Assembly: GCA_048939015.1 (NCBI GenBank)
Contig: JBHLPW010000061.1
Span: 1 to 28,337 of the forward strand
Reading direction: 5' to 3'
Origin: Promethearchaeota archaeon
GTDB lineage: Archaea; Asgardarchaeota; Lokiarchaeia; Sigyniarchaeales; SOKP01
Length of the DNA: 28,337 nt
Each line of letters begins with the position of its first letter. Position 1 is the stretch's first letter. Shown here one piece after another: positions 5,551-11,511 of this stretch. The notes below the pieces were generated by a model. That model was not told the DNA's origin and searched no databases. It was given only the letters and a program-made list of their open reading frames with translations. Made by a program: the position numbers and the translations under genes.

Positions 5551-6696
5551 TTATTTTTTCATTCGTGCTTGCTTTCTGAGCTCTCTTTGCTTACGTTTGG
5601 TTCTCGCTTTTAAATTCTCATCATAATAGTCAGCCATAGTTAGAGAAGGTGTGAACTGCGTTTCTTTCTTCAAAAGTTCTATAGCTTCACTTGGACAAGC
5701 ATTTACACAATTGCCACAACCAATACAATATTCTTTATCTATACTAGACACATCATCCTCAAGCGTAATAGCTTCCATATGACAGCGATCAACGCATGTT
5801 CCACAGCCGGTACACAAATCAGGATCTATGTTGGCATAATAATTTGTTGATGCAATTCCTGCCGGATTAGGAATCGATTTTAAGCTTTGTAACGACTCAC
5901 AACAACATCCACAGCAGCTGCATATAAAGTCTGCTTTTTGTGAATTGCTTGATTCGAAAACTAAGCCTTCCTCCTCATTCTTCTTTAATATTTCAAAAGC
6001 TTCTTCTTTACTTATTTGGCGAGCCCAACCTAAATCAATGTACATTTGTGCACTAGGCCCAAATCCCATACACGTTTCCAATCTTGAAGTAGCTTTGCAT
6101 GATTCTCCTAATGCTTGCATAGCTTGTCGACAAACACAATTCTGTACTCCAATTGGTTCTTCAGCATTTTCAAGTAGCTTTTTAATATTATCAAAACTAG
6201 CCACCTCAACATCATGTTCTACTGTAACGCCGACTGGAACCGTGCGTAATTGAATTGGAGGTGATCTAGCCATATCTAATGCAAGAACATCCCGCATATA
6301 TTCCTTAGTATCTTCAGCAAACTCTTTAGTCATTTTATTTACTTGATACTCAAACATGCCTATGATGAAAACCGCAGCAGAATAAGTCTTTTGATCACCT
6401 TTTTTTAAGGATTTAATAGCCCCCTTTCTCGCAAGACTATCGAGGTGCTTCTTTAATTCATCTTTTGAAATTGTAAGTCCTTCTGAATTCAGACGTTCAT
6501 ACATATTATCTAAGGGTTCAAAATCATCAAATGAATGTGCAAAATTCAAGTGTAAAGCTAATTTTGCTTCGTCAGGGGTAAAGAGTTGTTTCAAAAGACG
6601 AATTTCTACCCCCGATTCTGTTGGAGGGTAGCCTACAGGGAAAGTGTCAAAATGTTGCTGTAATTCTCTATAAATATCTATATCTGGATTTGACAT
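5551..6696 (-). CDS. 4Fe-4S dicluster (ferredoxin-domain) protein with N-terminal HTH-like region and Cys-rich CSCCGCCC motif
   Basis: C-terminal CTGCGTCVDRC and CIGCGNCVNACP motifs, plus CVCR, ETCM and ICSCCGCCC motifs typical of this family in anaerobes. Confidence 0.88.
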   Translation of the reverse strand: MSNPDIDIYRELQQHFDTFPVGYPPTESGVEIRLLKQLFTPDEAKLALHLNFAHSFDDFEPLDNMYERLNSEGLTISKDELKKHLDSLARKGAIKSLKKGDQKTYSAAVFIIGMFEYQVNKMTKEFAEDTKEYMRDVLALDMARSPPIQLRTVPVGVTVEHDVEVASFDNIKKLLENAEEPIGVQNCVCRQAMQALGESCKATSRLETCMGFGPSAQMYIDLGWARQISKEEAFEILKKNEEEGLVFESSNSQKADFICSCCGCCCESLQSLKSIPNPAGIASTNYYANIDPDLCTGCGTCVDRCHMEAITLEDDVSSIDKEYCIGCGNCVNACPSEAIELLKKETQFTPSLTMADYYDENLKARTKRKQRELRKQARMKK

Positions 6697-6770
6697 TTTT
6701 AATCATCTTCAAATTGTGTGATATTAAAATATATTGATTTTTGCAGTTAAATAATTTATATCTGAATTTT
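6659..6770. repeat. Direct repeat copy 1 (upstream region + first ~12 codons of the intact Fe-S gene)
   Basis: Aligns with 11403-11511 with 6 substitutions and one 3-bp indel. Confidence 0.93.
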
Positions 6771-6817
6771 GTCTAGAAATTATTCTTGAAACTGAAAAAT
6801 TGAATTCTATCTCAATT

Positions 6818-8329
6818 CTAACCTATAGCATGATAATGAAGCATAGAACGATGATAATACCTTGGTGGTATAATATATGCTAAAGGTCTTCTCCTTATGT
6901 AAGTTTCTAAATCCTTTTCGAAGAAAGAGTATATGCTGAGATGTATAGTAGGAATTATTAAATATCTCCATATATCAAGTTGCTCTTTTGAGATATTATT
7001 TTCTATCATTAATACTTTGGGATTTAAACACATTAGAATAGCATATTCTATCAATTCTGGAATAAATTTTGCACTTTGAGCTTTCAATATGTTTGATTGT
7101 GCCCTTAATAATACTCTCCATGTCTCTTCAGCATCCCAAGGGAATAATGAGGATATTGCTGAAAATAACTTAGCACCTTCGGGAATATCTTCAATTAACT
7201 TATGAAAATAATTATAAGAATCTAAATTGGCAGAAAATGATAGAATAAATAGGACAAACATCATCTCTTCATCAATTTCTTGCTTTAAATGTGAATAAAG
7301 AATTGTGTTTTTTCCAATCATCGGTAAATCTTTTTGAAAATCTATGAAAATTCCAAGATTATCATAATATTGTTGAATATGATTTCTATTTATTTCATTT
7401 TTTGAACCCCATACTGTAAATAATTTACCCAATAATGAGATAGCCGTTCTGGTCTTATGAGTGGATATATTAGCATTATTGAGGATTTTATGAAATAGCT
7501 CTTTATATTTATTTTCAGAATATTTAGATCTCAATTCACTTTCGATAACAGATGCTTCTTGTTTTTTCATTGGAATATTAGTATCTGGATGATTCATGAG
7601 ATAAAATGATATTTTCATCATCCTTTTTTGTGCTGCATTATAATCATATTCACTTAGGGTAATATTATTTAAAATCGGGATCAGATCTAGCATATCTGTA
7701 TTAAGAAGGAATAAGGCCCATACTGGAGAAAAAGTATTACTTACCATGATATTTCCAATGTTTTTAATAAGCGTATTGAAAATATCGTCTAATTTCTTTA
7801 ACACTTCGATTAATTCTATTAATTCACGAGAATAGAATCTGTTTCGAGACTTTATTTCATCAATCATTATTTCACCCAAAGGGGTAAGAACAACTTTAAT
7901 TCCATTAACTTTTATAGCTCTTTCATAAGTCTCAATTTCAATATTGAGTTTTAATAATTCTTCTTTCAGTTTTTTTAGATCGATTTCTTTATTTTTAACA
8001 AATTGATGTAAATCTGATATGTCCTTTTTTAATCTTGCACCTTTTCCAATTTTCAAATGGGTTAAAAATCGGTAGATTGTTGAAATATGATTATACTCTC
8101 CCTCTAATGATACTAAATTTTGATATCCTTGTCTTATATCGTTTGAGATCTTCATATATGATCTTTTAATCCTTGTTAACTCATCCTCTCTTGAAGTTTT
8201 AATTATACTAAGTTTAAATTCTGAAATTAAATGATTTTCAATTAATTCAGATGTCTCTTCATAGGATGTTAATATATCTTTTTTATCTTTTATAAAACTC
8301 AATATCTCTAAAGCTCTTTCACATTTCAC
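6818..8329 (-). CDS. Hypothetical protein: N-terminal coiled-coil (possibly inserted in a winged helix) plus all-helical C-terminal domain
   Basis: 503-aa ORF whose GTG start overlaps the upstream TGA (GTGA). Heptads at aa ~50-135 are followed by wing-like 'VVLTPLG'. The tail is basic/aromatic/His-rich (RRRPLAYIIPPRYYHRSMLHYHAIG). Confidence 0.8.
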   Translation of the reverse strand: MKCERALEILSFIKDKKDILTSYEETSELIENHLISEFKLSIIKTSREDELTRIKRSYMKISNDIRQGYQNLVSLEGEYNHISTIYRFLTHLKIGKGARLKKDISDLHQFVKNKEIDLKKLKEELLKLNIEIETYERAIKVNGIKVVLTPLGEIMIDEIKSRNRFYSRELIELIEVLKKLDDIFNTLIKNIGNIMVSNTFSPVWALFLLNTDMLDLIPILNNITLSEYDYNAAQKRMMKISFYLMNHPDTNIPMKKQEASVIESELRSKYSENKYKELFHKILNNANISTHKTRTAISLLGKLFTVWGSKNEINRNHIQQYYDNLGIFIDFQKDLPMIGKNTILYSHLKQEIDEEMMFVLFILSFSANLDSYNYFHKLIEDIPEGAKLFSAISSLFPWDAEETWRVLLRAQSNILKAQSAKFIPELIEYAILMCLNPKVLMIENNISKEQLDIWRYLIIPTIHLSIYSFFEKDLETYIRRRPLAYIIPPRYYHRSMLHYHAIG

Positions 8330-11207: not shown

Positions 11208-11383
11208 ACAGCTCCTAAGGATATTGGATTATATTTTGTAAAATATTTAATGTATACCTTAATTTAAAGTGTATTAATCTTGAATTTCTTGTAGATCTTA
11301 ATATTAATTTGATATCTTTGATAATGATGTTACATTTTTTAATTTTTATTTAATATCTTCTAACATTACTAATAAATATAGAA

Positions 11384-11437
11384 TCACGTTAAGAAAATTG
11401 GTTGTAATTCTCTATAAATATCATCTGGATTTGACAT
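11384..11437 (-). pseudogene. Truncated 5' remnant of the Fe-S protein gene (MSNPDDIYRELQPIFLT*)
   Basis: The first 12 codons match MSNPDIDIYRELQ of 5551..6696 apart from a one-codon deletion, then diverge and stop. Confidence 0.85.
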
Positions 11438-11511
11438 TTATAATCATCTTCAAATTGTTTGATATTAAATTATATTTATTTTTACAATTAAATAATTTAT
11501 ATCTGAATTTT
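11403..11511. repeat. Direct repeat copy 2
   Basis: 103 of 109 aligned positions are identical to 6659-6770. Confidence 0.93.

Follow-up and report, generated by a model that had tools for sequence, protein, structure and literature searches.

A three-gene operon between two copies of an iron-sulfur gene's 5' end in a Promethearchaeota archaeon: a probable recombinase-independent insertion with duplication of the target

How a group of genes can come to lie between two copies of the start of another gene, which itself stays whole, is the question raised by a 28-kb, AT-rich (~30% G+C) stretch of DNA from a Promethearchaeota archaeon (28,337 nt of contig JBHLPW010000061.1, the whole of which is referred to here as the window). 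The repeated sequence is the 5' end of a gene for an iron-sulfur (Fe-S) protein, the genes between the copies form an operon, and all genes in this region are on the minus strand. An earlier note on this DNA had described a direct repeat bracketing a three-gene cassette, and both our reading of the sequence and a repeat search recovered it, with three minus-strand genes between the copies. Comparisons with related genomes showed that the cassette is an insertion specific to the lineage of the assembly under study (G000; a draft bin of 4,859,214 bases in 125 contigs, with 6.5% contamination), and we consider it likely that a single recombinase-independent, non-site-specific (illegitimate) insertion, confined to this lineage, placed the operon there and duplicated part of the target. 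The features that carry this argument are as follows:

5551 to 6696, minus strand: intact gene for a 381-aa Fe-S protein (MSNPDIDIYRELQ...), recognized from its open reading frame (ORF), its translation, Pfam Fer4 families and paralogy
6650 to 6772, no strand assigned: left repeat copy, comprising codons 1-13 (up to ~15) of the Fe-S gene and ~76 nt of its 5' region
6773 to 11393, minus strand: inserted segment of ~4.6 kb, holding the three-gene operon, a 3' tail of ~45 nt and ~150-190 nt of the operon's own upstream region; not in the empty sites of the relatives G020, G046, G054 and G009
11384 to 11437, minus strand: dead 17-codon remnant of the Fe-S gene start (MSNPDDIYRELQPIFLT, then a stop codon), from its translation
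11394 to 11513, no strand assigned: right repeat copy, running on into the native right flank as in G020

The two copies (6650/6659-6772 and 11394/11403-11513) have the same orientation. When 6659-6770 was aligned with 11403-11511, 102 of the 112 columns were identical; the single 3-nt indel reported in the earlier note is present, but the substitutions number seven rather than six. The BLAST alignment of the copies reaches 6649-6770 versus 11394-11511 and, by eye, the left copy tracks the native sequence of G020, the closest relative (its Fe-S protein is 91% identical), as far as 6772. Both translations agree that the left copy starts the intact Fe-S gene and the right copy the dead remnant. 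The earlier note had also proposed a genome-wide BLAST search for further copies. Since a 161-nt query around the left copy matched, in the whole G000 assembly, only itself and the right copy (E 2.7e-40), the next-best match being one of 34 nt at the start of a paralogue (E 6.6e-4), the repeat is a two-copy sequence, far beyond chance, and not a multi-copy element. The left copy carries a Shine-Dalgarno (SD)-like GAAGATGA and, in gene orientation, a TATA-like block, GATATAAATTATTTAA, which is conserved in orthologues. The TATA, B recognition element (BRE) and SD assignments on the repeat are putative. In the right copy, the putative promoter, ribosome-binding site and start codon persist, all directed into the operon.

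The state of the site before the operon arrived could be read from related genomes. A DNA search of 54 genus genomes and a BLAST comparison of the window with 20 retrieved loci found the empty site that the earlier note had suggested looking for in four congeners, each with a single repeat copy (G020:C241, L041; G046:C76, L042; G054:C29, L060; and G009:C355, L056). At each of these, the Fe-S 5' end and one repeat copy are joined straight to sequence corresponding to window 11512+/11653+, and this right flank contains a conserved plus-strand gene for a Cys-rich protein of 62 aa. With the queries used, the operon was not found anywhere in G020 or G046, whose completeness is 88% and 97%, respectively. 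Among the 54 genus genomes and 32 metagenome loci, the operon lies beside the Fe-S gene in G000 only. The cassette is thus a lineage-specific insertion in the G000 lineage, and the integration with target restoration put forward in the earlier note holds in effect, the Fe-S 5' end and promoter having been kept intact.

The relationship of the two copies to each other and to the native sequence bears on when and from what they arose. Identities within 6659-6770 were as follows:

left copy to right copy: 91.1%
left copy to G020: 83.0%
right copy to G020: 81.2%
left copy to G046: 74.3%
right copy to G046: 75.2%

At the seven substituted positions, the G020 state is kept three times by the left copy and three times by the right, with one position ambiguous, i.e., three derived states in each copy; these states alternate along the repeat without any spatial mosaic or block pattern, although the sites are few (7). 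The 3-nt deletion is derived in the stub, i.e., the right copy. The right copy is followed by native sequence, as in G020, and the left copy by the 3' tail of the operon. Since identity between the copies (91%) exceeds that of either one to G020 (81-83%), they appear to have been duplicated after the split from G020, and both can be taken to descend from the native target. Such a native origin and post-G020 separation would argue against an old insertion lost by the relatives and against a copy derived from an attP site. The 91% identity of the copies also agrees with the earlier note's view that the event is not very recent.

In the insertion that we consider likely, the three-gene operon would have entered once, in the intergenic space from which the Fe-S gene and the small zinc-ribbon-like (62-aa) gene diverge. 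One junction would lie just upstream of the Fe-S core promoter (6772/6773) and the other would fall within the Fe-S ORF, near codons 13-15 (~11393/11394), and the 112-123 nt between these two junction points would thereby now be present twice, the left copy keeping the Fe-S gene whole with its promoter and the right copy persisting as a decaying stub. The molecular route is one that we infer, and two are considered here. Within the proposed insertion, duplicative repair or template switching (or a staggered break) at the target, route (a), would be somewhat the more plausible, and would offer the simplest account because the copies are sister sequences. One-sided homology-facilitated illegitimate recombination (HFIR), route (b), would follow it: DNA of a very close relative, comprising the 5' part of the Fe-S gene, its promoter and the operon, would have been anchored by homology in the Fe-S gene and illegitimately joined into the codon 13-15 region of the recipient, whose own promoter and start would remain as the orphan. 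Since neither copy is clearly closer to G020 and the Fe-S gene has no clear breakpoint, either route (a) or a very close donor could account for the window.

Several points weigh against this reconstruction. Target duplications of >100 nt are unusual for break repair. The microhomologies at the junctions (AATTTTKT at the left; at the right, a ~20-nt patch resembling GAATT.CA.CAA.TTT) were recognized by eye, lie in very AT-rich DNA and may be no more than chance resemblances. The age of the copies could also be underestimated if gene conversion has acted between them. Against the HFIR route in particular, no genome was found with the operon already beside the Fe-S gene, and the comparison of the Fe-S gene with that of G020 gave no clear identity breakpoint (81-96% in 100-nt windows), nor did sliding identity against G046 give a recombination breakpoint. 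Finally, the copies at a second G000 scar, on contig C82 (see below), are not mutual closest relatives, so that C82 and the window may differ in route.

HFIR has been described for naturally transformable bacteria and was proposed for 'displaced' gene-end remnants at Vibrio cholerae type VI secretion system arrays and at Rhs loci (PMC5361080; PMC3240628). The window resembles this model in that foreign or relocated DNA lies beside a conserved gene without a dedicated recombinase, one side is anchored by homology and the other joined illegitimately, and an orphaned piece of the resident gene is displaced behind the cargo. The host here, however, is an Asgard archaeon, and the orphan in the window is a 5' end with promoter and not a 3' end. 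Moreover, the window copies are each other's closest relatives, which in-situ duplication fits at least as well, and the donor arrangement was not found for the window. Experimental HFIR mostly yields deletions, not duplications. Literature searches, which left subscription journals outside their coverage, found no paper joining Asgard archaea with illegitimate recombination and nothing relevant on Lokiarchaeota together with direct repeats and integration.

Among the alternatives to a single illegitimate insertion, the one that survives best is nonetheless improbable, namely tandem duplication of the Fe-S gene and its promoter, after which the body of the upstream copy was replaced by the operon, leaving 17 codons. 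The earlier note had offered this history as well, and it is possible but takes more events than a single insertion. Tandem pairs do occur in congeners (e.g., G017:C19 165395-166501/166559-167665, G024:C77 and G015:C125), and a stub that is a gene start with promoter would suit it. However, two events are needed and also a coincidence, namely that the replacement stopped precisely where the duplication had been joined (6772); none of the four syntenic relatives has a tandem pair at the site, and no further Fe-S-like sequence is left within 10902-11393.

The next alternative turns on how the operon occurs elsewhere. In the genus genomes, its third gene (g3) was found in 13 of 54 and its second (g2) in 11 of 54, and ten congeners have the operon at ~80-85% nucleotide identity in two other contexts, site A (G001, G017, G024, G044 and G067) and site B (G010, G055, G016, G007 and G065). 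The metagenome scan recovered 32 loci, comprising 24 with g1-g2-g3 in order, five cut by a contig end but consistent with this order, one rearranged and two with g2 alone; it held no operon closer than 81% in amino acid sequence and none at the window site (operon loci entering the comparisons were L043-L050, L057-L058 and L061-L092). Because the downstream flank of site A is common to 16 loci, including operons only ~40-60% identical in protein, site A is the old site, and since such deeply diverged operons have it in common, the operon appears to be mostly inherited vertically, as a conserved chromosomal operon whose commonest site is elsewhere than that of the window. The five site B loci form one clade (support 100/100). 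The window operon is its own lineage from an unresolved radiation, with an end branch of 0.14 and L043 nearest at 85%. In G000, sites A (C122) and B (C40) are both empty; no operon remnant was found at its empty site A, and an intragenomic move from A could not be shown.

Run X5, from another study, contributed two weak matches. One contig, in which 6354 is followed directly by 11653 and one flank of the joint measures only 28 nt, may come from an empty-site relative, and another is ~98% identical over 6776-7206 only, then diverges, and may represent the operon in another context.

According to the earlier note, the repeats might be of attL/attR or Campbell type, i.e., the operon would be the cargo of a site-specific integration, the Fe-S 5' end its att site, and the integrase encoded elsewhere. 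Direct repeats of tens to ~100 nt that bracket an insert and overlap a gene end, with the gene restored, are indeed the classical look of elements integrated by tyrosine recombinases at tRNA or protein gene ends, and the operon occupies three or more sites in the genus. The evidence nevertheless does not support this reading, which we rate a little below tandem duplication and as quite unlikely. No direct repeat was found at the operon ends at any of nine other fully fetched loci (A, B or elsewhere; blastn-short, E<0.01), compared with 112 nt in the window, and the operon-end sequences do not recur beside the target. Both copies are native-like and appear to come from the target, with no attP/attB mosaic evident over the few (7) substituted sites, and the cargo is a chromosomal operon, not a mobile-element backbone; site A is common to deeply diverged operons, pointing to mostly vertical inheritance. 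The repeats at other G000 scars range from ~60 to 257 nt and differ in sequence. As the earlier note had remarked, there is no integrase inside: Pfam scans detected no integrase or transposase family in the cassette genes or in the other window ORFs scanned.

Nor does the insertion resemble other mobile elements. Scans for tRNAs and Rfam families in and near the inserted segment returned nothing, and no inverted pair at 6773-6800 and 11350-11393 was among the matches listed. A transposon or insertion sequence is not supported, there being no transposase family and no terminal inverted repeats among the pairs listed, and the duplication being 112-123 nt long in contrast to the short, fixed-length target duplication of such elements. 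Aloposons and other Asgard mobile elements are likewise gene-carrying insertions in Asgard genomes, and aloposons have giant genes and integrate at tRNA sites (PMC8813620; PMC11529989 for the other elements); neither giant genes nor tRNA sites are found in the window insertion. The scar is not of the att-site, transposon or aloposon kind.

Less likely still is ancestral presence, in which the operon and repeats would be old and the empty sites of the relatives would be deletions between the repeats. Recombination between 112-nt direct repeats would leave exactly the single-copy empty site that is seen, but G020, G046, G054 and G009 would each have had to lose the segment precisely and on their own (at least four losses), the operon occupies this site in no other genome or metagenome locus, and the common ancestor of the two copies is younger than the G000/G020 split (91% versus 81-83%), unless they were homogenized by gene conversion.

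An assembly artefact or chimeric contig, to which a contaminated draft bin of many contigs might be prone, is hardly credible. The copies differ at 10 of 112 positions, which excludes a collapse or mis-join, and the earlier note had already argued from their divergence. In addition, contigs assembled separately from run X1 bridge both junctions, matching 6300-6848 and 11168-11667 with 0 differences, and a 400-nt contig of X2/X3 bridges the left junction, matching 6545-6944 with 1 difference. This support is independent only in part, X1 being possibly the source sample and X2 and X3 apparently the same data.

As for the cargo, homology of the inserted segment to the operon elsewhere extends from 6794 to 11293-11319 by BLAST and from ~6773 to ~11350 by eye. 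The three minus-strand genes overlap or abut, i.e., they form an operon. They and the divergent neighbor of the Fe-S gene are:

9525 to 11207, minus strand: g1, ~557-560 aa, comprising a membrane anchor at the N-terminus, an outside domain, another hydrophobic segment and, at the C-terminus, a GNAT domain (PF00583 match)
8326 to 9528, minus strand: g2, 400 aa, with a predicted protein-kinase-like fold closest to SelO, from fold similarity over most of the domain
6818 to 8329, minus strand: g3, 503 aa, an all-alpha protein in its predicted structure (pLDDT 81.7)
11799 to 11987, plus strand: 62-aa Cys-rich (zinc-ribbon-like) gene, an ORF that is a conserved divergent neighbor of the Fe-S gene in relatives

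The GNAT domain of g1 matches PF00583 at 38.7-39 bits (gathering cut-off 20.7) over residues 475-534 of the 560-aa reading. The g1 frame is open for ~100 codons upstream of the ATG at 10901, and this extension encodes a typical N-terminal membrane anchor; there is no ATG, GTG or TTG ahead of the anchor. The start of g1 is most likely a conserved ATA (11198) or ATT (11207). All 16 diverged homologues have ATG (14) or GTG (2) at the start position. Within the window's own clade (13 loci), the position reads ATA in 11 of 13, TTA in one and ATT in one; in all 13 the frame is intact downstream and the same AGGAG-like element lies ~13 nt upstream. Loci in this comparison included L044-L050 and L061-L067, alongside window 11198-11207. 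A non-canonical start codon may thus be conserved in g1, ATA having replaced an ancestral ATG in one clade.

Sequence comparisons of g2 gave no NCBIfam or Pfam match, no meaningful PDB sequence-profile match and, at E<=1, no Pfam match, the SelO family PF02696 included, for any of the 19 members. The structural neighbors of g2 are the SelO/YdiU AMPylating pseudokinases and the NIS siderophore synthetases; identity is 13%, with no sequence-level family match, and a common fold does not show a common function. For g3, no NCBIfam or Pfam family, no meaningful PDB profile match and no Atlas match was found, the only PADLOC match was a marginal one to LmuC (E 0.0015), and the lack of a Foldseek match in PDB (best E 0.034) is not evidence of a new fold. 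Comparison of g2 with g3 by hhalign gave no relation. In bringing together an acyltransferase and a SelO/MchC-like protein, the operon calls to mind the maturation enzymes of microcins, an analogy that also draws on an Atlas lead.

The Fe-S protein beside the operon is made up of an N-terminal domain, a Cys-rich stretch and, toward the C-terminus, a 2x[4Fe-4S] domain of ferredoxin type. It belongs to a very large family: all 41 relatives (41 of 41) have matches, between 14 and 47 in each genome, and G000 has 46. Several genomes contain tandem pairs, and in-frame stops interrupt some of the copies. The zinc-ribbon label of the 62-aa gene was read from its Cys pattern, Pfam being without a match. 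In G014 (L055, G014:C65, 6436-7443), another gene, for a 335-aa secreted beta-helix-like protein, lies in the Fe-S/zinc-ribbon intergenic space; it has no flanking repeats. This space may be a preferred landing place.

Is the scar in the window the only one of its kind in this genome? A self-comparison of every G000 contig for same-strand repeat pairs of 60-600 nt that lie 0.3-30 kb apart returned 21 pairs, several of which consist of a gene end and an intergenic copy bracketing cargo without recombinase genes. On C82 (L097), the ~225-nt 3' end of an SMC_N-family gene is duplicated (56765-56990 and 63527-63752) around 6.6 kb of cargo with five ORFs (a PNPOx protein, a Fer4 protein and three unknowns) and no recombinase; all five close relatives have the empty site with one copy. 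The C82 copies are 80.9% identical to each other compared with 84.4% and 86.2% to G020, and the gene-attached copy has a GC-richer, mostly synonymous patch; this copy looks like an imported allele, as route (b) would predict. On C85 (L102; 26942-27018 and 28566-28641), the empty site is found in four of five relatives. Further same-strand pairs of a gene end and an intergenic copy occur on C46, C12, C117, C77, C98, C4 and C108, often bracketing NosD/beta-helix genes or transporters. For C12 no syntenic relatives were found, for C46 the same structure is present in G046 within a NosD tandem array, on C77 the repeat copy lies inside a larger indel, and C117 is fragmentary.

The operon's own upstream region is retained in G000. 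A conserved ATTTAAA element ~115 nt before the g1 start is intact in 12 of 12 clade relatives but broken in G000, where it reads ATTATCAAA (11315-11330, minus strand). The sequence allows, but does not show, that the orphan Fe-S promoter now contributes to operon expression. We advance only tentatively, and as rather doubtful, the wider proposal that gene-end duplicates bracketing cargo reflect a recurrent, recombinase-free uptake or relocation of operons in these Promethearchaeota (at least three loci: C56, C82 and C85), with possible co-option of the orphan promoter, ribosome-binding site and 17-codon start to drive the operon.

The event in the window is of a known kind, and the recurrent scars in G000 and the conserved operon are side leads. 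It would be a clean natural case of an Asgard archaeon that gained or relocated a whole operon without mobile-element machinery: the site is occupied in this genome and empty in relatives, and the alternative sites of the operon are empty here. Duplication of its end would explain how the Fe-S gene survived and gives a rough clock for the event. The cargo is an operon of three genes that is widely conserved among Asgard archaea of sediments, encoding a membrane GNAT protein, a predicted SelO-like protein and a helical protein without a known fold relative. Considering the recurrence in G000, a systematic scan could measure the frequency of such scars and, by determining for each whether the native allele is the one or the other copy, test the route. 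If the wider proposal is true, the scars would record gene flow in Asgard archaea in a form that can be dated and whose polarity is resolved, and would exemplify promoter capture through duplication.

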